Of a DNA stretch of 64,000 nucleotides, positions 11,049-58,505 are shown piece after piece. The notes below the pieces were generated by a model, which saw only the letters and a list, made by a program, of their open reading frames with translations, searched no databases and was not told where the DNA came from. A program made the translations under genes and the position numbers. The DNA comes from Sphyrna mokarran (Eukaryota): positions 37,696,001 to 37,760,000 of the forward strand of contig JAGIQG010000019.1 of assembly GCA_024679065.1 (NCBI GenBank), given 5' to 3'. Each line of letters opens with the position of its first letter. The first letter of the stretch is position 1.

Positions 11049-14000
11049 AATAACCAATATGCCACAATGCCGACTTGGAAAATCTTTAATAGGCATCAAC
11101 ATCCAAACCCCACCTGGAGTATGATAAAACCCTGCTTCAACAACTAGACACCAACAGCAATGCAATGCCAATGGTTTCTTATTGGAATGATAGTGAGAAG
11201 GTGCATGTGTCATAGATTATCTTTTGAAAAATGTATCTGAAACACACTGCCATGCTTTATACTAGATAAATCAAAGGATAACTGTCATGGGTAGTGAACA
11301 AAAGTATCTGTCTCAAAGGGGATGCAACTTCATAAAAATGTGTGCGGCAAGATCTTTCCGTTTGCTCGTAATCACGTGGCATGATGATGCATTACTTGTG
11401 CATTAAGTTATCCTGATGAGAAACAATGTGATTATTTTGGTTCTACTATCTCCTGGAAATAAGGAGGATCATTAGAGAACTTTGTGTGACCATTGGGTTC
11501 CTTTAAGTGAATTGTAGATATAAATGGAAATAACTAAGACTATTTAGTAGCTAGAATAGTTATTGTCACCTTTATCCTTTTCTAGCAGCAAGATGTTTTC
11601 CAGCTCCTACAATGCTTCTATGAGATTAGACACAATAGGTAGATTTAGCATTTGGAGTGGAAGGATCTTGATTCCAACTGGCCACAACAGCAGTCCTATT
11701 AGAGAAACAACCTATCCATAAAATAGGAGAATTTTTAAAAAGCTATTGTCAACTCAGATCTGAACATTAACTCATGACATTTTATGCTGTTGGATGTTGA
11801 GCAACATTAGAAAGTCAAATATTTGTGCACTTATCCAACCAAGAATCCTACACATCTTGATATGAGCAGTTGATTATGAGTTGAAATGATTCAAATATTT
11901 CTCCTCAAAAACTATTAACAATGTACTTGATGTTTGTGAATAAACATGGAGGAGATAGATAGGACTTTAATCAGTAGCAGGATGAGAATTATTGGGGAGC
12001 GGGCAAGAATATGGAGATGAGATTGAGTTGAGATCAGCCACAATCATATTGAATGGCAGAGTAGTCTCAAGGGGCTGGATTGCTTACTCCAGCTCCTAGA
12101 TGTTATGTGACCTTGTACACTGAAGACAGCAAAGAAATAGAGAAGAAAGCCAAAATGCAAGGACTGTACCAGTTTTCTGCAGCCTAAGTGTTTATTTTTA
12201 ACAATTCCAGCTGCTCCATTCTCCCAACAGAAATAAAGATAACGCGACTCACTACAAAATCTGCCCTCTTGACTATAGAAGACTTTGGCTGTGATCACAT
12301 GTACAATTAAGATGGTTTCTCAACTCCCACATTACATTAGGAGCTGCCAAGGTCAATCACTATAAGCTGTTCATGTTAAAAATAAATAAAGCCAAATGGC
12401 AAACTCCCAAGACTTGGTTGGACTGAGGCCTTGATTACTAAACATCTCAAGGTACTGAAGGAGGAAGATGTCACCTCCTCAGTCAGAATCATCTGGTAAA
12501 TTTGAGATGGGACTTCTATTGGAAAACAATTATCTCCTACATCAGGTATAGTGAGCAAACATTATTCCTGACAATCTAGAAATTACTGTTGATCATAGCA
12601 GTGAAAAGCCATATGTGTTGATGTAATATCCTCTATCCATTATTTTAAGGCAATGCTATCCATTTATTTTATCTGGAATGTTAAATTAACGTTGCTTAAT
12701 GTGATTGTCCACTGACATTAGTGCTGATCATTCTTTCAACGATCTTTCTATTCATCGTTTCCTTTCCAATTCAGCCTCCCACCTCATCTCCTTAAGATGT
12801 TCGCTTGTACCACAGGCAAAATCACACCCAACTAACCAATGCTCATCTATCAGCCTTGGCAATGGATGCATCAGCCTATTAAACCATGGGAGGGGAATCA
12901 AAAAAAAGTCAGTTCTCATACATTGCACTTTTGAGCAGGAGTCACTGGATACTTTTCAGAGTGGGTTTCTCTTTCTTAAACCAGGGGTTCTGTATCAATT
13001 ATGGCACCTCTATGAGTGCTCTGACTATGCCACAGGGGCTGGTGACTGAACTTTGGATGTTCAAACTCTATGTGGCTCAATTACTTCCTGGGTGAATTCA
13101 CTGAGCTCATGGCGGGTAGCTAATGATCTTCTTAATAGGCTTCTTAATATCAATTATTAAACTAATGAAAAAAACCCTTCCTATCTCAAACATGGGCAGC
13201 ATGAATTATTCAAAGCCACTATGGCATCTGGAGTAATCTATCTGTATTTCTCGCTCATTTCTTATCCAAAGGTATTAATAAAACCATTTTTGTTTTCTTG
13301 TCTCTACAGTTGAGACAGGTACGTTCAGGTCCATTGAATTCAACCCCGAAGCAGTTACATTCCCAAGGACAATGGTAAAATGCAGGAAGATGCAGTCTTC
13401 AGGTCAGGTGGAGCCAACATCAGAACTTTGCCTCCAAGGGACTAAGCCTATACACATTGTACTGTCAGCCAAGCACAGAATACATTTTGCTTGTTGCTAG
13501 ATGCACTACAAGGTTTTATTTCTCTCTCTCTGTGATATACTGTACAAACTGGAAGATCTTCAACAACAAACCAAGGGACATGTAAGGCAAAGAAAGCAGA
13601 TGGTAGATCTTCAGTGCCTCTATCACAAACTGGGAGATAATTGGAATAGGGTACTTGTTTGCCTTGTTCAGTCATTGGCAACATCATGTCAGTATTCAGT
13701 CTGGCCCACTGAAGCCGGCTGACATGGTAGGCCAGCCTAAAACAAGGGTGAATGAACAGGGATACAGTCAGTTGGAAGAGCAAATTGGCTTCACATTTCA
13801 CTCAGTTTCCATACTCGTACCTTGCAACCAAGCTCCAGGAGGTTGTGATGCAGAACTCTGAATCCTCTGAAAACTCATCTATGGAGGTTTTGGGGCTACA
13901 TGTCCTGCTCTCATCTGGCTGAGGTGGCTATAAATCACAAAAGTGCCTCTTTCAAGGACCCTCAAGGAAGAAGTCCTCTCAACTTAACGTAAGGTTTGTG

Positions 14001-15340
14001 GTGAGGGTAATTATAACAAAATGTATATAGTTTTGGAAGTACAAGTAACAATGTAAATTAACTGCACTAGTCGCCCTAGCTTAGAATTTCCACAAGAACT
14101 TCCTCTGATCCTTCACTGTTACTTTGACCGAATCCCTGGAGAAATGCTGAAAACAAAATTGTCTTTTGACCCCTTCCTCTGGAAACTTCACTCCTCTTTT
14201 AGCCAAATTCTGTCAGGTTTGGTTCAATGGTAGCCCATTTATCTCTGAGTTAGGAGATCCAGATTTTAAGCTTCAGTTGAGGATTTAAATATGTATGCAG
14301 AGACAACATATGAAATAGTTTTTTTAATATAAATTCTTGCCTGCATTTTAAATTGCCAAACCCATGAACTGAATGGAATACCTGATTGAAGATGATCTTT
14401 TGCATAGTTATAAATTAGTTAGTGCTCCTTCTGATACTATGATCTTATAAGCTCTTCAAAAAACTCCCAGAACATGCAACCATTGGGAAAATATTTGTTC
14501 ACACCAGTAGCTACAAAGGTAATTCATTTTCTCCAGTAATCCTGCCAACAGACTGGAAACTGAAAACTTTACCCACGTTTAGATGGGAACTTAACAACAA
14601 TATCTTGCTTTTATCTGGTATTTTTTGAAGAATCTTCCACAGAGGTGAAGAGGAAGATTGAACAGTAATTGAAAAGAACTTGGGAGGCTTGAGCAAATAT
14701 ATGTGCAAAGCGATAGTTATTATGAGCATCCAAGGGTGTACTTGTTAACAAGGTAGGAAGGTTTTGGAAAAGCTGCAGAGAATGTGGCCAGTATACCTCA
14801 AGGCTCTAACATGAAAGGTGGAATGAAATGAAAGTCAATGTACAGGAACACTGTATCTGAAGGCACTGGCATATTTAGGGCTGGGGGAAACTGCAGACAG
14901 AGAGAGAGAATGTAAGGCCATAAACAAATTTGGAAAGAATTGACAACATGCCCAATATGAGCCATTTGGAATTTAGTAGTGGTGGGAAGAAAAAGGGCTA
15001 CTGGCAGTGCTGAAGTGGACACGATAGTAGAAATGTTAAGATAAGATCTCATTCGTTCTTTCTGGTTGAGAATGAAGAGCATTCCTGGGGAACAGTATGA
15101 GACAAACTCAATGTCATCAGCAATATTCCATCAAAAAACCTTTTGAACCATTGCTCTGGTGCCTGGACTCCACCTGTGATATTGCATTAGCTTTGGTTTA
15201 ATGTGAATAACTGAACGAATATGTGTAGGATTTCTTCAGCTGCATCCAAATTAAAAACTAGTCAAAGTTCTTACAAGAGATAGAATTGAATTGAGGCCCT
15301 TTGGAAAAGGACTAGGACGATCGAAGCAAAAGGCAAATCT

Positions 15341-15424
15341 CCTTTGCCCATTTTGGCACTAGCACATTTTTGCTTTTGTATATGGCCTTTGAGCAATTAT
15401 GTGTAGTGCCAATATAGGAAAAGG
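15341..15424 (+). ncRNA. MIR96: pre-miR-96 hairpin (5p mature 15352-15374; 3p 15394-15415)
   Basis: Exact mature miR-96-5p TTTGGCACTAGCACATTTTTGCT, complementary 3p arm CAATTATGTGTAGTGCCAATAT, and a CNNC motif (CAAC, 15433) about 17 nt downstream. Confidence 0.98.
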
Positions 15425-16068
15425 ATGCACGGCAACCATCATTGTCCAGGAAGAGAATACAACTTCTGACGGCCGAGACTCAGGAAGTAAAATCCACAGT
15501 ATAGGGCACAACAGAAAGTAGGAAGGAAGATGAGATAAATCAAGAAGTAATGATCAAGGGACAATGAACTTGGATGTTAAAAGACTGCAGAATATAAAAG
15601 GATAGTAACAATAGGGAAAATAAAGTTTGGGGGAAGATGGAGGTCAGGCAAGAGATGGCACAACGTATTTCTTGAACATTTCCATTTTGTCTTCATGTCT
15701 CAAAGTCTTCACTTTCTCACTAGCTTTCTCTAATGCTGTTGTTGCCAGTATAATTGCAATCTCCCGTTCTGTCTTTTTACTGTTCGATATTGGTGAAATG
15801 TTCCCTGGTGTACTGTGACCTTGCCACATTGGTAACTGAGCTGTATCGATGGTATTGATTCTCTTGTCACTTTTCCTCGCCATGGGGACTTTTTGCTATT
15901 GTTTCTCATTTCTGCACTGTCTGATATTGAGCCAGGTGCTGGATGACTTCATGGAGTCCGTTCAGTGCGGAAGTAAAGTGCCGGAACTTCATTGGAGGAC
16001 ACTACTTGCTTTGGTTTCACAACATGCCAAAGACACATTGCCAGCTTGGGCCGGAGGAGATAACTGCA

Positions 16069-16147
16069 TGGCTGTTTTTGGCAATGGTAGAACTCACACT
16101 GGTGAGATAGTGGGATCCGGTGGTTCTAGACTTGCCAACTATAGCCA
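16069..16147 (+). ncRNA. MIR182: pre-miR-182 hairpin (5p mature 16077-16100; 3p 16121-16141)
   Basis: Exact mature miR-182-5p TTTGGCAATGGTAGAACTCACACT and 3p TGGTTCTAGACTTGCCAACTA. The order 183-96-182 is the canonical cluster order. Confidence 0.98.
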
Positions 16148-43334: not shown

Positions 43335-43507
43335 TCACTGCTCCAGTGTCACTACCTCCACTGCTTGTCCTTCCACGGTTACGCCAGACGACTGGATATC
43401 TGTCATCCGAGTGGTGACAGGGGCCATTGCAACCTGAACGGGTCTGTTACCCTGAGCCAGGCTGGTGACGACGGTCTGGTACATGCTCACTGGGATCTGC
43501 ACCAGGC
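43335..43507 (-). CDS. NRF1: Nuclear respiratory factor 1, last coding exon (phase-1 acceptor, ends in TGA)
   Basis: Acceptor ctttccgtttctttcatttccag, then (G)LVQIPVSMYQTVVTSLAQGNRPVQVAMAPVTTRMTDIQSSGVTVEGQAVEVVTLEQ*, which matches the NRF1 C-terminus (human ...GLVQIPVSMYQTVVTSLAQGNGPVQVAMAPVTTR...GQAVEVVTLEQ). It is convergent with the miR-183 cluster, as in human. No upstream constitutive exon is recognisable in the window. Confidence 0.97.
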
Positions 43508-44969
43508 CTGGAAATGAAAGAAACGGAAAGAGTCAGCTATTTACCAATGCAGAAACGCCTCCCCCCAATTCCCCCACCCCAACATCAATATTATTTCCTT
43601 TTAGGTGAAGCAGCCCAGTCTGTGATACCTCCAGTTAGGACAACAACTTTGAGATAGGTTCTAAGGTTGACTGGCAAGACATTTATTTTGGGATTAAGTA
43701 CCGTGGAGTCTGGAAGCAAACATATCTGGAATTTTGTTCAGTCAAGGATACAATACTCCAGCATCACAGTGACTGACAGCTATAGGAATGCAAAGAATAA
43801 ATTGAGTAAAAGAACATATGGTCTCAAGCCCTTCTTCTTTCCAACCCACCCCACACAATCATGGGCTCTATCCAACATGCTTCATCATAAAGAACAGTTC
43901 CGTAAAAATGCTTTCCAAGATAAACAAGAAACACTTATTTATTCATTCCTACCCTGACCGTTAACCTTTGTGGTCTGCCCTTCACAAGCATTCAAGCCTG
44001 TGACAAGGACTTCCAATTGTGGAATATTTGGTCACAACAGCCTATCCTTTACTCTCCATCTCACGTAGATATCTCCTTCATGATCTTATCACACTCTCTC
44101 TCTTCCAGGATTCTGTCTTAAACAAAACCAAATTCTCTGCCTTCCTGTACATTCTTCTCTCTAATTGTAATGACAGAATTTTCAGTTATCGTATCTCTAT
44201 GTTCTGGAACTCTCTTCCTAAAATCCTTCACTGCCTGTGGTTACCTTTAACTCCTCCACTTCTGTCCAGTGTCTCATTCTTTCTGTGAAGCATCCTGGGA
44301 TATTTTCTACATTGTGCACTATCCAGTTATTTTCCAAACTAATTTATGTGGTAGCAACGGTTTTTGCTGGAAATCTCCTTCATAAGGAAGGAGAAGGGGG
44401 AGAGAAAATCTTCTCATCTGCAGCCTTATTTGACGTTTATTAATTTTGATTACTCCACGTGTGACACAAGATAGACAGCGAGGCATGGGGCTAGGGAGAA
44501 TTACAATCTCTCTAATTAGCCCTCACCACATAGATAGGAACAATGTGAGATCATTCAGCCCCTCGGATCCGTTCCACTGTTCAATTTGATCATGACTGAT
44601 CGACACTCTTCATATGTGATGGACCTTAAACACAAAAAGAAGATTTCTTCTGGTATCTATCTGGAATAATAGTAAACAGAGGAAATCTTCTTCTATTATA
44701 AAATTTGTTATGGTACAGTTGAGAAGAGTTGGCTGTACTAGTCTTGATTGCAGGTTGATAAATTCCAAGCCTTGTTTGTTTTGCAGTAAGTGGACACAAC
44801 CCAGGTTCTAGAATGGGTTTCTGTGTCCTTGGATTAGGAAGGACCTAGTGACTCTGCCAAGGTCAGGCTCAAACATGAGGAATAGGCAGTTGACTAAGGG
44901 GCTGGACGGTAGGTGGTCATGGAATTGGACACTGACAAAACAATTGATACATTCAGAAGGGGAGAAGAG

Positions 44970-45297
44970 GAGCAGAATAGTGGTACAGTGGTTGGTACTA
45001 CTGCCTTACAATTCCAGGGACCTCTGTTCAATTCTGGCCTTGGGTGACTGTGTGGAGTTTGCATATTCTCCCTTTTGTCAGCATGGGTTACCTCCAGGTG
45101 CTCCAATTTCCTCCTACAGTCCAAAGGTGTGCAGGTTAGATGGATTGACTATGCTAAAATTACTTCTTAGTGTCCCAAGATGTGTAGGTTAGATAGATTA
45201 ACCATGGTAAAGGTGTGGAGTTAAGGCCTGGATAAGTTACTCTATCATAGGGCAGATGCAATGAGTCGAATATTCTCTTCTGCGTTGTTTTGTAATG
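44970..45297 (+). mobile_element. HE1-type SINE
   Basis: GTGGTACAGTGGTTGGTACTACTGCC...TGTGTGGAGTTTGCATATTCTCCC...CCAAAGGTGTGCAGGTTAG. Confidence 0.88.
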
Positions 45298-45664
45298 TAC
45301 CCGATTGATTGCAGACTCCTGGGCAAAAAATCTATTTCTGCCCACACCCAAATGTTGGACAGCAAGTATAGAACTACTGGGGCATCAAAATCGAGTGCTG
45401 TTTTTAATCACTCACATACGCAGTCTTAACAGCAGAATGCTATGAAATGAGAACGAATGGGAATCTTGAATAACTTTCCCATATTCGCCCATATTCCCAG
45501 CAAACCCAGGGAAGTTGAATTAGTGAGATGTCCTTTGCTACTCAAATAAAAGCAAAATTCAAAATATAAAGAGGAATGTTGGATAAACTCAGTAATCAGG
45601 CAGAGTAATTTAGACTTGAAACATTTTTCTCTGTGCAGATGCTGCCAGGTTGAGTTTAGCCTAG

Positions 45665-45948
45665 GATAACACAGTGACAGAGGTTGGCACTGCTGCCTCT
45701 CAGTGCCAGGGACCCAGGTTCAATTCCTGGCTTCGGTCACTATCTGTGTTAAGTTTGCACCTTCTCCCAATGTCTGCATGGGTTTCCTCCAGATGCTCCA
45801 GTTTCCTCCCATAGTCTAAATGCTAAATTTTCTCAGTGTAGCCGAATAGGCGCCGGAGTGTGGTGACTAGGGAATTTTCACAGTAACTTCATTACAGTGT
45901 AAGCATTAATGTAAGCCTACCTGTGACTAATAAACATTAGCTTTACTT
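45665..45948 (+). mobile_element. HE1-type SINE, tail B, inserted in a Penelope-LTR-like remnant
   Basis: Head, V-domain and tail B are present. The flanks read GAAAC...CAGATGCTGCCAG and TCCAACATTTTGTTTTTATT. Confidence 0.85.
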
Positions 45949-46849
45949 TATCCAACATTTTGTTTTTATTATCCCTTGTTACTCCACTGACTGAGAGCAG
46001 CTCACTTTCAGAATGGAGCTAACATTGAACCTAGGATCATGATTGCTTGTGTGGTTCAGCTTCTCAAAATTCTTCATTAGCTATAAAACAATTTGGGTGA
46101 TTGAGGGTTACGAAAGGTGTTCTATAAATTCAAATCAGTACTCGTCTTTCACTCACTGGTCCATTACAGGAGTGTTTATTTGGTGAACACAAAGGAAAAT
46201 AGACAAAGATCTCCAAAGATTTCAATATTTAAAAAAAATCTTTTCCCATTTAATAATATTAACTGACCTTCTGCAGCTGAGCCAAGGCTGCAGGGTTTTA
46301 CTGTGCCAAGTTTTTAATTTATTTTGAAAGATTCGAAGGACTTAGCCATCTGAATGATTTAGCGAAGTAGAGTTAATCCTACTGGTTACATAATTGATGA
46401 TTAATTTGTAAACAGACGGAGGTTTTTCTTTGGTACTCATGTCTATAGGTCTAAAACCAACCTCCAATTAAGCTAATCTTTACATCTTCACCCTGACATG
46501 GACTGACAAGCTTTCAAATTATATCAAAAAATATAAAGCTCCCTCATTCTTTCCATCCTCTCTCCCTTCCCCCACAACATACAACCAATTCAAAGCTCTC
46601 AGAAGAAATGAAGAGGAGCTGAAACTGCAGGCTGCCCGCAGACACTTACAATCCAATAGCATGACGTGGGTAGCAGGGGTTCTGATACTTCTGTTGCTGG
46701 CTTCCCAGAGATCGTAAAGGCTGCACCTACAACTGCACTGCAGACTTCACATTTTATGGGACAGTCAGAAACAGAAGAAAAGGATTCATACAGCAAGTTA
46801 TTGTGGACAATTCAGGGCACCACATTTCAAGAAAGATATGAAGACCATT

Positions 46850-47290
46850 AAAATCACACAGGGATTTACCAGGGCTGAAAGATATTAATTGTGAGAAGAA
46901 GTTGGAAAAGTTAGGATTATGTTTCTTGGAATAGAGCAGGTTAAGAGATCGAGGTTTTTCAAGATGATGATTAGAGTAATTAGAGAAAAGCTATTCCTCC
47001 TGGTAAGTGAGTCAATACTCAGAGTTCAGAGATTTAAAATTATCAGTAAAAATAGCGAGGGAGGATGAAGAGTAGTATTGTCACGCAGAGTCACTGTGAT
47101 TTTGAACAATCTACCTAAAAAGGCGATGGTTACTGATTTCATAAATAACTTTAAAAGGGAGCTGGACAGATACTTGAGGATGGGGAACTTAAGGCAAACA
47201 GCAGGAATGTGGGATAAAGCATGATGACTCTCAAAGAACAAGCACAGTTGCAATGGGCTGAATGGCTCCTTCTACCCTGCAAGTTTCTTT
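46850..47290 (+). mobile_element. CR1/HER1 LINE 3' fragment
   Basis: CCAGGGCTGAAAGAT...AGGTTAAGAG...TTTAAAAGGGAGCTGGACAGATACTTGAG...ATGGGCTGAATGGCTCCTTCT. Confidence 0.8.
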
Positions 47291-49499
47291 GAATCTTTAT
47301 AAAAAATTAAAAATGAAGCAATGATGAATCACTGCAGAAGTGTTATTTACAGACACACACTGTGTAATTCAACATTGAGAAGGAACTGGTGACAGTGAAA
47401 GGTGAGCCGTATAGTTACCTGAAGCAGCCAACACCACAGAGGGTTACTTAGAAGTATAAATTACAGCCAAGGGTAAGTGAAATTACATGAACTGCAGAGA
47501 ATGGACAGCAGAGAAAGAGGCTATATGATTCAAATGGTTAATATCAGTATGAACGTGCCACATGAGCCCCCTCCCACCATTTTCATCTAATTCTATTCTA
47601 CATAATTTTTTTATTGCTTTCCCTTCGTATTTGTTTAGCGTCTCCTTAAATCATGTATGCTATTCACCTTGACCATTCCTTGCAGCAGAGTGTCTACACT
47701 CTGAACCATTCTCTCTGGATAAAGAAAAATAATTTCCCCAATTGGATCTTACGTTTATTACTCCTAGTTTTAGAATCCCCGACACGAGCAGTTTAGACAG
47801 AGTGCCCGAGGAGCGCAGAGACATGGCCAGCCTATGACTGTGAATAGTGAAGGGCTGCTGGCTCTTTCGCCATGAGCCACCGACTTAAGCTCATTACTCC
47901 ATTCCAAAACTGACCTGGACATAGTATTTTATTAAACCCAATTACACAATAACATTGCTCAGCAACAAAGCTTCTACAGATGTCACTAGCCACTTCTTAA
48001 CAAGACAGTAGTTGAGGCTAATCACTAGACGGATGTGGGGGAGGGCCCCACAGTATTGCAGGAGACATTTAAATCAGAAAGTAAAGGATTTGCCTTTCCT
48101 CCTGTTCTGCTGTTGCTAACTCTGCCTAAGGGACAGTTTTGTAGATATCCGGGTGTCTGTTAGGCAAGCTAAGTGTAATTCTCAATAGAGCTTACATAGT
48201 GGGCAGCAACAGGTTTGTTCACTATAAGTGAATCATCTGATATTTGTTCCAGAACTCGTGTACATGCAATTTTCAGTGGAAGCTGCTGGATAGAAATAGC
48301 AATCAAATCAGGCTGATTTTTCCATTTCCAGCTGCAATACTCAATCCACCATCTCAGCAGAGTCCAGGCTCACTTACTAGCCATCAGCCCTGAAAACCAA
48401 CCCCAGCAGCCAATCAGCAGGACTGGCCATCAGTACCTGGCCTGGATCAAGATCAAATTAGGCCTTTGGGAAAGATGTGCCTCATTAGGAAGCTGCTTGC
48501 ATGAGATCAGATTTGCAAATAAGTGGATTGGACTCTAGCTGTTATCTTGGAGTGAGATTTCCTATTTAAGCTTCACCAGCAGGGAACAGAATAAATCACT
48601 TACTGTTGATCAGTAGTTTAATACCAGGAAAACCTTGACAATTGGAGTCTTTTGTCCCTTCCTGTCCCCCACTGATTTCCAATCCACCTGGTTCCACACC
48701 CCATCACTGAAACATTCTTGGGACACAGAATAAAACCCCTCAACAATGTCCGATCAAACATTACCATTATTGATAGGGCACAGATCAGATACACAGTAAA
48801 AGCGAATTAGTTCCTCTCTTCACAGCTCAAAGATATTGAGGACAACACCAGTGTCCTTGCCATCATCTTGGCTGAGGTCAGCTATTTCTGCATATGAGGG
48901 GAAATTGATCTTAGTTGCTCAACTATTCAGTGCTTTAACCAGCTCAGTCATCATTGGAGCTTTGGTCAGGAACAGACTGCTAATTGTACAGAAAGAAGCT
49001 GCCTGCTATGACTTAGATGGTTGTGGTGATGATTAGCAAGTCAAGCCAAGTCTGTCTCAGCTAATGGCAGGAGGGGTTTTACACTTGGCTTCAGCAGCTG
49101 TAGAGTCACTGGGTTACAATGGAGGCATCAACCAGAAGCACTTCCCCTGATTGCTCTACAGACCCTTTAAAAACGTAACCATGCACAGAATTAAATTTGG
49201 TTGACATGGTCTGTGGTCAGACAAAAAGTATGGTCACTTGGATGAAATATTGGTGATCTTTGCACTATTGAGAAAGTGCCAATATTTTTTAGCACAGATA
49301 AAAAGAAAGTTGATGTATCAAAATAAAAGGTTCTTTCTATTCCACAGAACCGTCGTTACAAGAGATTGTTGGATAATTCTACATTTGTCTCTTTAATTCA
49401 TATATTCAATATGAAAGGAGCTCAGTAGGCTTAGTTAGCAGGATGATTTTCTGGGTAACGTGAGTGAGCATGTGTGCTGTCCTTTCATTTTGTAGAACC

Positions 49500-50490
49500 C
49501 TAAAACTGCATAGCACAGAAGAGAAATATTCAGTTCGGTTCTTTTAGAGAGAAATCCAGTTAATTCCACTTCCTGTTCTTTTCCCAGTATCCTGAACTTT
49601 TTTCCCCTTTGAGTGTTGACCCAATTCTCTTTTGAAGAGTACGACTGAATTTGTATCCATCACCCCTATCATGTAGCGCATTCCAAATCCTAAACATTCA
49701 TTGCATAAGAAACCTTTCTTCATGTTGGGTCTGGTTCTTTTGCCAATCACCTTAAATTGGTGACCTCTGCTTATCAACCCTTCAGCCACTGGTAATAATT
49801 TTTCTTTATTACTTCATTTAACCCTTCACAATTTTTCAACAATATCAAAATTCCTTGTAATCTTCTCTGCTCCAAGGAAAATGAAACAGCTTCCCCAGTG
49901 GATCAATATAACCGCACTCCCTTATTCCTGGGACCATTCTACTTTGCTGCTTCAGAAAAGCAGCCAGCATAACCAAGGATCACAGGCACCCTGGACATTC
50001 TCTTTTCCAATTTCTTCCACTGAGAAAAAGATACAAAATTCTGAGGTCACCAACCGATTCAAGAACAGTTTCTTCCCTCTGTCACCAGACTTGTATTAAG
50101 TTTATCTTTCTCTACACCCTAGATATGACTGTAATATTACTTTCTGCACCCTATGCTTTGTCTGCAAAACATGCACCAAGCAATACTTTTTATTGTATAC
50201 CAATACGTGACAATAATAAATCAAATTCTGATAAATTTTGTCTGCAACCTCTCCAAAGCCTTCACATCCTTCCTGAAGTGTGCTGCCAGAATTGGACAGA
50301 ATATATCAGAAGAGTCAAACTAGTGTTTGATGCAGATTTAGCTTAGCTTTCTGTTCTTTTTTTTAAACTGCTTGTCTTGTTTGTAAAATCCAGGATCCCA
50401 TATGTTTTATTAACCTGCCCTGTCATCTTCAAATATTTGTGCACACGCTCCCCTAGGTGTCTCTGTTCTTGGAATCCTTTAAAATTGCAT
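49500..50490. mobile_element. CR1 fragment (-) interrupted by a Rex-Babar-like LINE 3' end (+, ~49885-50227)
   Basis: CR1 sequence lies on both sides. The insert reads CACCAACCGATTCAAGAACAGTTTCTTCCC...CAATACGTGACAATAATAAATCAAAT. Confidence 0.75.
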
Positions 50491-53086
50491 TTCTAGCCTT
50501 AGGATTGAGTGCAGAGAAATCCTGTCTTTTGATGGACTGCAATGGGAGAAGATAGAAAGTGGGAGTAGGCTGGGACTGACATCGTTGTAGTGGTGCTGAA
50601 AGAATTTTGCCCCTACAGTTAGTTCCATAACTTAAGAGAATAGCTGTTATTATTGGGGGTGATAAAAGAAATATAAAATAACAAACTTGAGTAACTCAAC
50701 AGATGGTCATTAACCTTCAAACACTGGTATTGAATTTAAGTTCAGCTCAACTGTCTGCAGACTATAAAGGATTTATGTGAAATTAGTCAGAGGCTTTCTG
50801 AATGCAACCCCCATTGAGACAAGATAACAGAGCTGGAAAGAGAGAGATGGAGCACTCTTCTGAGGTTGGTGGTTAAGCACATTATTAAGGCAGGCTTTAC
50901 ATCTAATCAAAGATTTCTTCTTCATGTGCAAGACATGCCAATAAGTGCAGCTTTAAATTTGACTGCAGGGCTCCAATACTGGAAGGTAGTGTTCATTTTC
51001 AAAGACTGACATCCATCACATGGGTGTGCACGCATGCACGGAGCTCAGAGAACATTCATAGAATTAATTCTTTCCTCCAGGAATCGCAACCCAGATTCAT
51101 GTCAAATTGGAAGGATTAGCAACCACTTTGCCACGAGTGGCAGCACCAAAGGGAGGTAACACACTTCCAACATAAAGCTTGGACTATTCCTAACAAAGCT
51201 TTATCAACTGAATGAAGAAAAAAATACTTAGGAAAAAGAAGTCTTAACATGGAAATTTGATGGAAGACGGAAAAAGCTTTGAGAAATTCTGCTTCATTAA
51301 AATGAAAAACCATGGTTAGGTCATAGATACAAAAGGAGGTAATAAGTTGAAGTGCACAAACCTTTAAAGTGTTTACAGGGGTAAAAAGTGACTAAGAGGA
51401 ATACAAATACAAAGAATGAGAGATTTAGATGAAATAATCCCTAGGATATTGGTATTGCTAGAGAAGTCAGCAATTTTTGCTCATCCCTAGATGTTTTCTA
51501 TTAGTGGGCTTTCTCTCGACTTGCTGCAGCTGTTTGATACAAGCACGGGGTTTGCTAGACTACTTCAGGTTAATGAGCAGTCAAATGCATTGGTTTGGAC
51601 TCATGTGTACATCAGACCAGATGTGGTCAGTAGGTTTCCCACCTGAGACATTCGATGGACACACTGCCATTACAAAGAGTGCTTTCTGGTAAAAGTAGAA
51701 GGACTTAAGTTGTCAAATTATTTGGAGGAGAATGCCAATTATAGATAAACATTTCATACATCTACTGTAACCCTTCATCAGATTCTGAGTGGCAAGAATG
51801 CAGGTGCTAGCTCATTCAGAGATTACGGCCCCTCTTGCTGCAAGGCAACAAGGCTGTGGCTAATTGTTGCAAATGGCCTCTCTCAGCTGTCTGTGTTCTA
51901 AAGCTCATTATCCTATATCTTAAACTATGGCAGGCAGTAGCTGCCCTGCAATAGATTACCAGGCACCTCAATCTGCAACACGAGTCGATTACAATAATTA
52001 CTCCTCTGCTAATCGCCTTCATTTTTTTTAAACAGTGAAATCTGTTACTCTTGATCACTTCTCTCCATTTGGAATTATTTTCACATGTACAGATGGATTA
52101 AAAAAACTATCCTAATGCAACTGCTACTTTTTTAAAAAAATCAGCCTGCTTTATAATCAGCCTCCACTCTTTTAATTTTCACACACTAGTTGCATTGGGA
52201 ATAACGTTACAAGTCCTATATGCTGCATGTTTGATCCTTTCCTTAGAGCTGCCCCTTCCCCTATGTTGTCAGCACACCTCTCCTGAAAATTTGAATTGGA
52301 GGACAGGTGCTGGCAGCCCCCCTGGACTCTGCCAAGGACTCTGTTCTTTAGGTGCAAGCCCTGATGATGTGTCCAACTTGGATATTTGACTGCAGGGTGC
52401 ATCTCAAAGTCAAATTTTAACATCTTAAACACATGCCAACACTGGACAATTACCAGGAGCAGGAAGATACTTGGATATGGAAAGCAAGATAGTGAGCAGG
52501 CAGTGGGGTTAGTATTTGATAGGTCAAATGGCCTTCTTCTGTGCTGTAAATATTTAATACTGCTTTACTGATCAGTCTGTGTTTCTGGGTGTTGGGGAGC
52601 CAACATGATCTGCATTTCCATAGCAGTGGCCAGACTGTGGTCAATTTATTCATTGAATGTTGAGTGTGACACTTGGTGATGCCTTTACTCATTAGGCCAT
52701 GAGATTTAGAAGCAACTAAACTTGCTAGTATGCTCTCCCACTGGGTCAGTTGCCAAGTGGTCAACTGGCTGATTTAGAATTGCACAACTTTACAGCACAA
52801 AAGTAAACCATTCAGTCCATTGTGTCTGTGTCAGCTTTTTGAAACAGCTATTCATCTGATCTTTTGCTCTTGCTCTACAGCCCTGCAATTTCCTCAAAGC
52901 ATTTGTAGGGATGGTCATCACCTGTTCTGGACACTTTTCATACCAATATTTAGTCTCTTTCCCTTTCTCAATGTTGCCACTTCCCTACATCATACACCTC
53001 CTGACCTGGGTGATACCATGCAGACTGGGCCCTCTTATATTCAGCATTTTTAAAATAAACTAAAGATCACAGGTTTGAATCTTTAC

Positions 53087-53212
53087 CAATACTGCTTTCT
53101 CGATCCGGTTTGTTGCACCCAGTGGCTTTCTGTTGTTTGCTGCCCGTGGAACTGCGGCAGACAGCGGTCAACTGGGAAGAAGCGGCAACCTTTACAGGAA
53201 CGTACAAGGCCA
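53087..53212 (-). CDS. Candidate in-frame cassette exon of NRF1 (126 nt, 42 aa)
   Basis: Acceptor ttcccctctcgtattttgcaattcacag and donor TTG|gtaaag. Phase 1-1 matches the last-exon phase. The frame is open (VALYVPVKVAASSQLTAVCRSSTGSKQQKATGCNKPDRESSI) and locally CpG-rich. Confidence 0.6.
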
Positions 53213-55836
53213 CTGTGAATTGCAAAATACGAGAGGGGAATATGATGGAAACGGCTCTGACACACGCAATCTGAAACCAGCACCACTAGCACAAGCATCC
53301 CAATTTTCATCGCTCCATCATTGGTGGCTGTGCCTCCAGCTGCCTAAGCACTAAACTCCAGAATTTCTTCCTCAAATCTCTACTTCTCTTTCCTTTCCTT
53401 TAAGCTTGTCCTGAAACCAACCTCTCTGACTGCGTTTTTGGTTGATTGTCCTAATATCTCCTTACACAGCTCAAATTTTGTTTGACAATACTCCCATGAA
53501 ACGACTTAGGACCTTTTACTAATTTAAAGGAGCTAGGCAAATGCAAGTTGTTGTTGCTACGCAGGTGGCCTTCATTACAGCCTCCAAAAAATCCAACAAA
53601 TACCCAAAAAAGGCCAGGTACCACTTGTTAATCCACTGCCATAACAAACAGATTTACATCATTTCACCAGAGTTGCCACCGTTCCTTTTGAAGATGGATG
53701 GTTCTTTGGGGAGACATTTCACTCATGTGACCATATCCACCCAGTGGATAAGTATTGCCAGGCCTTTCAATGTTAGAGGTCATCCAGACCCAGTATCAAT
53801 GTGCATACTTTGTTCGTAGGTGGGTTAGGAGAGATGGTGTTGATGGTGGAAGTTAAGAGGGGGTGGGGGTTGCTGTCACCAGATAGTCAGCAGGGGATAG
53901 AAGTTTTGGTGAGTTTGCCTCTCCCTAAATGAGGAATACTGATCTCACTGTAATATTCTTAGCATCTTGCTGAACTGACAGCAGATAACCTACAACCTTC
54001 CTGGCTCAACCTTCTACTAGATAAACTTAGAGCCATTTCAGAGCTTTTTGGAATTTGCTTTGAACAAAAGCAAAGTCAACTGTTGCAATTGGTTTTATTC
54101 CACTGCCACTGAGCTAAGGAGAAATAAAACACAGGGCCAAAATGGGGGGTTTCAAGCTGAGCATCTACAGCGTTGACACAAAGGGGTGATTTGTTCTGCT
54201 GCTCCTCCACTGGTGATTACAGGCTGCAGATTACTGCAGTCACGTGTGCTGCTTAGAACAAGGCAAGCTGTCAGGAGCCGCTAAGGTCAGTGTGAGCTTT
54301 CTATCCAGCACTCAGAAAAGAGAGTGGAGGACAGGAGAAGACGAGAGAGGAAAGAAGTGTATTTTCTACTTTAGCAGTCTTTAATTTATTCAATACTGCG
54401 TATTCCTTTGACTTTTTTCCCTTTTAGCTTGCAATATTAAAATTCAAGCTTGGTGTGTCCAACTAATTTGCTCAATGTTTCTGATTCTTTTTAACATGAG
54501 CAGTGAACCACACTCATAGACCTTAACCTAAATTGCCACCTTATCACCTCCAATGCACACACATGCATCTTATAATTGCTTATTACTGCTGTGGTCATTA
54601 ACTTATTTGGCTTCAAATGTTATTTTTCCCCAGTTCAACCCTGTAGTGGGCTGCACTGTATGACACTCTCCAAGCATTTCAGCTCACTGAAGGGGCCATA
54701 GATCAAGTTCCAACAAAACTGGCGCTGGAACTGAAATTGGATCTACAATTCCTCGGCTGCTCAAAGGACAAATGCATCAACTGAAAAAGAAATCACACCC
54801 GGAATGAGCTGGATTTCAGTCTAAGTGACATCAACCCAATGCCATGTGAGATGCAGCTGACATCAAGTCAGGATGCTGGACGTATAGTTACGTCAATCAT
54901 GAAATAAAGGGGATTAACTTTGTTTCTTTGCTTGAAACTCTGGTAATTGTTTGCAGCTAAAGAATTTCAATTCCAAAGAAAACAAAACAATTCCACATCA
55001 AAGATTACCAGACAGGATGGAAAATAGAAGCAGAAAACACATACATAAAAGCATGCTCAAGCACATGCGCAAGCACACATACATCCATGTGCATGCACAG
55101 CAAAGAGGCTATTTTGGGAGATACAGAAAATAAAGATCAATATTTAAATTAAGAGCTTGGTCTCTGAGAACTCTGATCATCCTAGCAGCTAAAGGCAATA
55201 TCCAGAACAGTGCCAAGTTGGACAGATCAATAGGTACCAGGTTTGATGCAGTCTTGAGCTAGGTGATGCCAGCACCTCTCTAAAGTGTCTGTGTTTTTTA
55301 ACGACAGGTGAGGTTAGCGTCTTCAGCCAAATCCCATAGATGAATGACTACCTGGATAAGGTACCTACAGTCTGGTTAGGTGCATTGGCCAGGCCAAAAT
55401 CTCCCTCAGTGTATCCTAACAGGTGCCCGTGTGTGGTAACTAGGGAATTTTTATAGTAACTTAACTGCAACATTAAGTAAGCCCATTACATTAATAAATA
55501 AACTTAATTATAGGTGGTCTTCAAAAATCGGGTAGGTGGGGATGGTGCGATGGGGGGAGGGAAAATTCTACACTTTGTTCTTTTGGTGGGCAGGTGAATC
55601 AAATGCCAGAGTAATGATTCATAAAACCAAGAAGAACACAAGTTTTTGTCCTGAGTTTGTCGAATGGAGATGTCACGACTGAACATAATGTCACAATGGA
55701 ATAAAAACCAAACCAATCCAGCACTCGCTCCTCATTGAGCACTGCTTGAAAGCTGTGGGATGTGAACTGTGAGCTAGACCACAATCTGGCTCAGCTCAGA
55801 TTCCCTCACAACAAATAAGCCAACGACACTAGCTGC

Positions 55837-57690: not shown

Positions 57691-58505
57691 ATAAGGAGTT
57701 ATTAGGCAAGATGGCCAAAGACTCAGTGATAGAAATGTCTTTGAAGGAACATCTTAAAGGAAGAAAGCAAGCTGGAAAGGTGAAGGAAGAATTGCAGAGC
57801 CTAATGGCTACTGAAGGCATGGCCACCAATGATGGAGTAATTAAAACTGCAGATGTTCTAGAGGCCAGAATTAGTTGAATGCAGACAATTTGGAGGGACA
57901 TGGTGCTGGAGATTACTGACATAGGAAGGAGCAAGGCAGTGAGTTATGATCTAGGATGTACTGCGCCTCTGAATAGGACAAATAGATTCAATAGTGACTT
58001 TCATAAGTCAACTGGATAATTAGCTGAAGGAGAGAAACTTGTAGATCTATGGGCAATGAGCAGTGATGGGAGACTAACTGGTCAGCTCTTGAAAACAGCC
58101 ACACGGATGGGATGTACTTACGTGCACAAGGTTCTACGGCTGGTCTCCCTCCAATTACATCATCCTACACAATCTTTCCTTTTCCTGAAAGCTAATATCA
58201 AGTCTTTTAGTCCTCTTTTCTACCTAAACCCACTTTTCTGCCAGGGATTAAATGCCGTGGAACTTCTCATCTCTGTTAGCACTCCCATCTGGCTATAGTT
58301 GGAAGTTTCTTTTCAAATTCCAAGCTAGGTATCCAATTATACATAGATATGGAAGAGAAAGGTCAAATGGATTATTCTATATCCCGAGACGAAAAAACCT
58401 GAAGCTTGCCTCACCTCATTACACTTCCAGCTGCTTCTTAAAAGTGACAGTATTCTTGCTTCCACATTAGAAGCCACCCCACACATTGATTGTGTTGTAC
58501 CAAAT

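Follow-up and report, generated by a model that had tools for sequence, protein, structure and literature searches.

Among the systems closest in kind to the exon described here are the alternative exons of Lu et al. 2009 (PMC2784930), where RNA selection pressure appears as low synonymous change, and where the strong cases were tissue-regulated in 15 of 20 tested. A second relevant system is Drosophila erect wing, an NRF1 homologue whose C-terminal end is set by neuron-specific, ELAV-regulated processing of the last intron, as summarised in PMC2643944 and PMC2275111. The subject of this report is an optional 126 nucleotide (nt) cassette exon in the last intron of the NRF1 gene of Sphyrna mokarran, found on the minus strand of a 64,000 nt stretch of contig JAGIQG010000019.1 (positions 37,696,001 to 37,760,000, here called the window). 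Like the exons of Lu et al., it preserves the frame, shows low synonymous change and is conserved in alternative use. However, their alignments were centred on mammals, whereas the shark estimate comes from 10 changes and is accompanied by a frame change between lineages. Erect wing differs from the shark exon in both mechanism and factor. Excerpts of the NRF1 literature define residues 305-503 as the activation region, the loss of which gives a dominant negative protein (PMC6113564, PMC11269187), and place the solved dimerisation and DNA-binding domains at 54-284 (PMC10810270). The cassette inserts at residue 447 of the 503 amino acid (aa) shark skip form, within the activation region, as the original prediction proposed, and at a long distance from the solved domains.

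The exon is a real, optional NRF1 exon that is spliced to both neighbours, and the skip form is known from predicted isoforms. Read contigs from 7 of the 23 listed sequencing runs, referred to by their codes (X1, X2 and so on), were placed on the locus; six of these runs were guessed to be RNA and one was of unknown kind. The runs come from related organisms and were chosen for words shared with the region; the read tool could only guess which of them are RNA. The junction between the cassette and the terminal exon, proposed by the original prediction as a check, was seen in five of the six RNA-like runs (five studies, five coded organisms). In runs X2, X6 and X8 (three of the four runs in that set), 43507 is joined directly to 53087, with GT-AG ends and 9,579 nt skipped, and loose contig ends in X1 and X14 correspond to the start of the terminal exon. 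X14 also has a loose end corresponding to the end of the upstream exon and is the only run in which the upstream junction was read; one contig holds both cassette junctions. Exon-only contigs of 184 nt were recovered from X2, X6 and X14, as expected at a splice branch point. X9 yielded an unspliced contig only, and X19 is unspliced through 52902-53295, covering the exon and parts of both introns. Contig depths for the cassette and the terminal exon, respectively, were 16.2 and 34.4 in X2, 9.1 and 36.9 in X6, and 10.5 and 208.7 in X1, and in X8 both exons lie on one unbranched contig. Relative cassette depth therefore runs from about 5 % (X1) up to an unbranched path (X8), depth being a poor measure according to the tool itself. 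Contig 2 of X1 (window 53213-53330) is spliced at the cassette donor and retains the upstream intron, which suggests that the downstream intron can be removed before the upstream one.

Among the 196 NRF1 proteins compared, 57 contain the cassette peptide. Predicted inclusion isoforms, from sharks, rays and skates, were found in 17 of the 19 cartilaginous-fish genera. A skip isoform is predicted as well in 15 of these 17, and the peptide was present in none of the 100 proteins without a cartilaginous-fish label. These isoform counts rest on automatic RefSeq models. The search of vertebrate NRF1 isoforms thus recovered the peptide, and the exon is already in the automatic annotation. The elasmobranch RefSeq isoforms, known as automatic models only, have the same exon and the same junctions, with a peptide 79-93 % identical. 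The closest named protein is that of the houndshark Mustelus (93 % identity over the cassette and 100 % over the terminal exon), and Mustelus asterias has one predicted NRF1 isoform with the exon (isoform X2, XP_078091930.1) and one without it (isoform X6, XP_078091936.1). No publication on a shark NRF1 cassette exon was found among the records and excerpts returned by a literature search, and a metagenome scan with the start of the exon gave 0 matches.

The features of the locus are collected in Table 1. The 42-codon frame starts at 53213 on the minus strand and has no stop. Because the upstream constitutive exon ends in phase 1 and the terminal exon starts in phase 1, the cassette is symmetric and the frame is kept with either inclusion or skipping. 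With its splice sites, a length that is a multiple of 3, equal phases, both junctions and a predicted skip form, the exon has the features of a conserved frame-preserving cassette. The cassette and the terminal exon are the only NRF1 exons inside the window. The last base of the upstream constitutive exon is at G000:C760:37760410, 410 bases past the window edge, making the upstream intron 11,197 nt long. Further along this contig, the other NRF1 exons appear in their proper order (11 matches). The upstream constitutive donor matches the consensus at 7 of 9 positions, against 5 of 9 for the cassette donor. The acceptor stretch, 53213-53251, has no change in X1 and one change in X9. The retention of CpG noted earlier was also found, with 7 CpG in 126 nt and an observed/expected ratio of 0.76 compared with 0.23 for the intron, and 7 CpG were reached by none of the overlapping 126 nt intronic windows (step 10 over 20,367 nt). 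Much of the original prediction on the anatomy of the exon, namely its canonical splice sites, matching phase, open frame and downstream UGCAUG, is therefore borne out.

Table 1. Features of the NRF1 cassette exon and its surroundings (window coordinates)
Feature	Position	Strand	Evidence
NRF1 cassette exon, 126 nt, phase 1/1, 42 codons	53087..53212	minus	sequence, junction contigs, predicted isoforms
Acceptor: pyrimidine tract and AG at 53214-53213	53213..53245	minus	sequence, runs X1 and X9
Donor, 5/9 positions matching the MAG/GTRAGT consensus	53081..53089	minus	consensus match; GT at 53086-53085
Codons 1-9, invariant in 12/12 distinct elasmobranch peptides; upstream of the part used in the chimaera	53186..53212	minus	peptide alignment
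Exon part homologous to the 26 aa insert of P0182, different frame; ungapped core 53164-53099	53099..53176	minus	frame-shifted base-change scan
TGCATG (RBFOX-type hexamer), +65 in downstream intron	53017..53022	minus	sequence; in 53006-53067 without listed X1 difference
Downstream intron, 9,579 nt, GT-AG	43508..53086	minus	absent from spliced contigs
NRF1 terminal exon, coding part (57 codons and stop), downstream junction partner	43335..43507	minus	phase 1 start at 43507

Change in the cassette is low at all classes of site, and the change that exists does not spare amino acids. X2 differs at 5 of the 126 cassette sites but at 13 of the 44 synonymous sites of the terminal exon (p 2e-5). Distinct listed base changes comprise 2 synonymous and 8 non-synonymous in the cassette and 18 and 4, respectively, in the terminal exon (Fisher p 0.0015). 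The corresponding ratios of non-synonymous to synonymous change per site (pN/pS) are about 1.25 and 0.08. Purifying selection on the encoded peptide, which the original prediction had offered as a check on constrained coding, was thus not detected in this small sample. Mean peptide identity over 15 species is 87 % for the cassette, compared with 100 % and 96 % for the flanking exons. Among 12 distinct elasmobranch peptides, 17 of the 42 columns vary, and a one-codon (3 nt) indel is the only indel seen. The insert had been described as basic and Ser/Cys-containing. It is indeed basic (net +4) and Ser/Thr-rich, but a conserved function for the peptide is weakened by the excess of non-synonymous change, by the replacement of one of the two Cys by Phe in three skates, and by the frame used in a chimaera.

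The chimaera Callorhinchus milii has a predicted NRF1 isoform X1 (XP_042191436.1, P0182) with an optional in-frame 26 aa insert at the same junction. At the amino acid level, no match between this insert and the shark peptide was seen (p 0.40 by shuffling). However, its best tblastn match, among the matches listed on the minus strand beyond 43000, is the cassette exon in a shifted frame. Over 66 ungapped nt of the cassette, residues 5-26 of the insert can be reached with a minimum of 15 base changes, the best score among 127,868 positions on the two strands (mean 36.9 changes, standard deviation 3.2). In this core, 9 codons are identical, 11 differ by one base and 2 by two bases. The whole 26-mer also ranks first (of 127,844); it needs 23 changes in the shifted frame, whereas the shark frame requires at least 35. 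A gapped scan gave 36.0 bits at the cassette, whereas the best of 795 other tiles reached 21.1; the highest tile score of the 37 other inserts was 29.0. By these comparisons, the insert of P0182 is homologous cassette DNA read in a different frame, with the junction shared but with 26 rather than 42 aa and with other splice sites, frame and peptide. A same-frame, in-register likeness of the Callorhinchus insert was considered and rejected, as it is reached by 1.2 % of pseudo-exons and the shifted-frame match is far stronger. Frame disruption in related species had been named as an outcome that would tell against the exon; only the 3 nt indel was found among elasmobranch peptides, and a different frame is used in the Callorhinchus model. 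The exon itself is ordinary and already annotated, and the frame change between elasmobranchs and the chimaera is the one surprising feature, which rests on one predicted protein. It was not found in print in the portions of the literature covered. As the gene model of the chimaera uses a different frame of this DNA, the cassette is likely to matter more for its nucleotide sequence than for the added peptide.

The reading that we prefer, though we consider it evenly balanced between right and wrong, is that the exon is a splicing-regulated in-frame spacer in the NRF1 activation region, with the nucleotide sequence and the frame selected more than the peptide. The weak donor, together with exonic and near-intron elements of which UGCAUG is one candidate, would set inclusion differently among tissues. 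Inclusion would spare dimerisation and DNA binding, and the inserted basic segment would sit between Ala-rich segments and the hydrophobic cluster of the terminal exon. Activation by NRF1 reportedly depends on hydrophobic clusters (Gugneja 1996). One such cluster lies at the beginning of the terminal exon. Inclusion could then re-tune, and would probably dampen, activation by NRF1. Other vertebrates have repeatedly gained optional in-frame exons of unrelated sequence in this intron, which would fit a site where insertion itself is tolerated or used. If regulated, the exon would be a splicing handle on NRF1 output in cartilaginous fishes.

Several points weigh against this reading. The classing of changes as synonymous or non-synonymous uses 10 and 22 listed changes, from tables that omit differences near contig ends and without correction for phylogeny, and for X1 taken alone the contrast has p 0.07. 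Non-synonymous change in the cassette is well below synonymous change in the terminal exon, so the protein may be constrained as well, and the invariant codons 1-9 are equally explicable by a protein motif. The intron flanks in X1 are about 93-96 % identical, which is no better than three other X1 intronic contigs (94-95 %). In simulations of neutral drift at 0.4, 0.6 and 0.8 substitutions per site, 72 %, 22 % and 3.5 % of cases, respectively, had no more than 15 changes, and the synonymous distance between the shark and X2 is already at least 0.37. Because drift can reach this level of similarity, the chimaera match is taken as evidence of homology and of a frame change, and not of constraint. 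P0182 is a single predicted model under two RefSeq accessions and is known from the predicted protein alone. No second holocephalan protein with this insert was found, in a weak search that did not return P0182 itself.

A wider proposal is that one ancestral element of the last intron has served as an optional in-frame exon ever since sharks and chimaeras diverged, about 420 million years ago (PMC6238376), with its frame changed. Taken with the unrelated exons of amniotes, amphibians and the bowfin in that intron, NRF1 would then have a peptide-independent 'insertion switch' ahead of an activation cluster. We regard this as doubtful, though as a possibility to be taken seriously. If true, any spliced in-frame spacer would re-tune NRF1, a master regulator of mitochondrial genes. 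The frame change is also a natural experiment separating exon inclusion from peptide function, a question that is open for most conserved alternative exons.

That the peptide itself is functional in elasmobranchs, with the hydrophobic stretch of codons 1-9 as a partner-binding motif or an extra activation cluster that RBFOX would switch in neurons and muscle, appears unlikely but far from negligible. The invariance of these codons, the restriction of indels to 3 nt and a weak in-register likeness to the first residues of the terminal exon (equalled by 2.9 % of 2,421 pseudo-exons) all favour a functional peptide. However, codons 1-9 have no listed synonymous change either, and constraint on the bases near the acceptor would suffice to explain them. 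Of the 33 remaining columns, 17 vary, codons 1-9 are absent from the chimaera model, which uses a different frame for the remainder, and the peptide has no Pfam match. The same likeness to the terminal exon had suggested a partial duplication of that exon, and this origin was rejected as several unrelated inserts score equally or higher.

The hexamer 65 nt past the donor is free of listed differences both in a single depth-3 contig from X1, the more distant organism, and in the close relative X19, which also fits a peptide switched by RBFOX. The X1 contig has 11 differences in 166 nt, 9 of them listed and none listed in 53006-53067. A six-base word is expected to remain unchanged with a probability of 0.49-0.71 at X1 divergence, and the contrast between proximal and distal intron is borderline (p 0.02 with a boundary chosen post hoc, p 0.06 at the midpoint). 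TGCATG occurs 26 times on this strand of the window and 10 times in the 20,367 intronic nt, and would be met by chance near any donor in about 4 % of cases within 100 nt and 8 % within 200 nt. Both the presence of the hexamer and its conservation are thus weak evidence. Because Rbfox1/LASR sites are enriched downstream of activated exons (PMC11874969), RBFOX control of the cassette stands as a lead, possible though clearly short of probable.

Alternatively, the DNA could have been preserved for a cis-regulatory role, enhancing either NRF1 or the miR-183/96/182 cluster, which lies at a distance of 37 kb (10969-16146), and have been exonised separately in elasmobranchs and chimaeras, with splicing into NRF1 tolerated since the frame is kept. 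We consider this quite unlikely. It would account for the low change at all site classes, the CpG retention and the single copy, and for the different splice sites and frame of the chimaera model. It also agrees with the finding that 52 of the 100 other NRF1 proteins, from a list enriched for inserts, have unrelated sequence inserted at this junction. However, the identical acceptor and donor are used in 17 genera, inclusion is apparently high in some runs (X8), and the flanking intron is not unusually conserved. A neutral, low-level cryptic exon whose apparent conservation reflects the slow genomes of cartilaginous fishes would fit a pN/pS near 1, the similarity of other X1 intronic pieces to that of the exon, and a chimaera likeness compatible with drift at up to 0.6 substitutions per site, but is improbable given the few cassette differences of X2 beside its neighbouring synonymous sites, the same boundaries and open frame in 17 genera, and the substantial contig depth in X2, X6 and X8.

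Other origins and roles gave null outcomes. A genome search, whose copy counts are lower bounds and which is blind to very old copies, found no match to 52940-53293 other than itself, giving no sign of a transposon origin. High-copy interspersed repeats occupy 44985-45900, 49955-50332 and the window from 53294 upward; one of them starts about 80 nt upstream of the cassette acceptor and has a 67 % copy at 57692-57849. Inclusion gives neither a premature stop nor a frameshift, as a poison exon (alternative splicing coupled to nonsense-mediated decay) would. In relatives, inferred stops interrupt the second open sense frame. Hidden coding elsewhere among the six frames was rejected, as the excess of changes at codon position 2 (14 versus 5) gives p 0.06 and those frames richest in synonymous changes acquire stops. 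Folding of the RNA is not better than that of shuffles (z +0.85 and +0.68), there is no Rfam match at the exon, and no pairing with neighbouring exons was found (best E 0.3). Pfam PF10492 (Nrf1_activ_bdg) matched neither the genome nor seven NRF1 proteins or pieces, so it gives no placement of the insert. AlphaFold2 models of 27 sequences had a mean predicted local distance difference test score of 35, poor even in the DNA-binding part, and are uninformative on disorder. Elsewhere in the window, the miR-183, miR-96 and miR-182 precursors lie on the plus strand at 10969-11042, 15344-15421 and 16070-16146, above Rfam gathering scores and convergent with the NRF1 3' end; the human genome has the same neighbourhood.

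The last NRF1 intron is a recurrent site of optional exons. Lineages with their own inserts include amniotes (19 aa), birds, frogs (Xenopus), the axolotl, the bowfin (Amia), squamates and cetartiodactyls (whales, cattle). The amniote exon (P0056 primate, P0049 bird, P0053 aardvark) is likewise in-frame and optional, in the same intron and between the same two constitutive exons, but has no detectable homology to the shark cassette. More generally, no homology of the shark exon to other inserts was detectable in any frame, with a best rank of 12 of 795 tiles among 37 peptides. Orthology with the amniote exon through the second open frame, plausible by eye, was not supported by the same tile scan. 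The frame change in the chimaera suggests that the amniote exon, too, may act by insertion and not by its sequence.

Rays and skates have further products of this intron (P0128, P0131, P0150, P0155, P0169). Pristis has a 12 aa optional exon that is used alone or after the cassette, and skates have two alternative C-terminal ends; none of these had a convincing match in the window. Outside the window, there is a second elasmobranch NRF1 cassette exon of 87 or 90 nt with a NAGNAG acceptor (L002:4590-4501, minus strand, equivalent to G000:C760:37789590-37789501). Its 29 and 30 aa forms are both in predicted isoforms, and it is absent from the three Callorhinchus proteins examined. Its insertion point, in a helix of the dimerisation domain (alpha3) that contacts DNA phosphates, directly follows the counterpart of human R113. 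From this position, the second exon may change DNA binding or dimerisation, and is possibly more consequential than the 126 nt exon. Finally, several predicted elasmobranch isoforms (P0001, P0003, P0006) either lack the exon encoding residues ~320-354 (L003 1090-980) altogether, a loss of 34 aa, or have a version that is 10 aa shorter.

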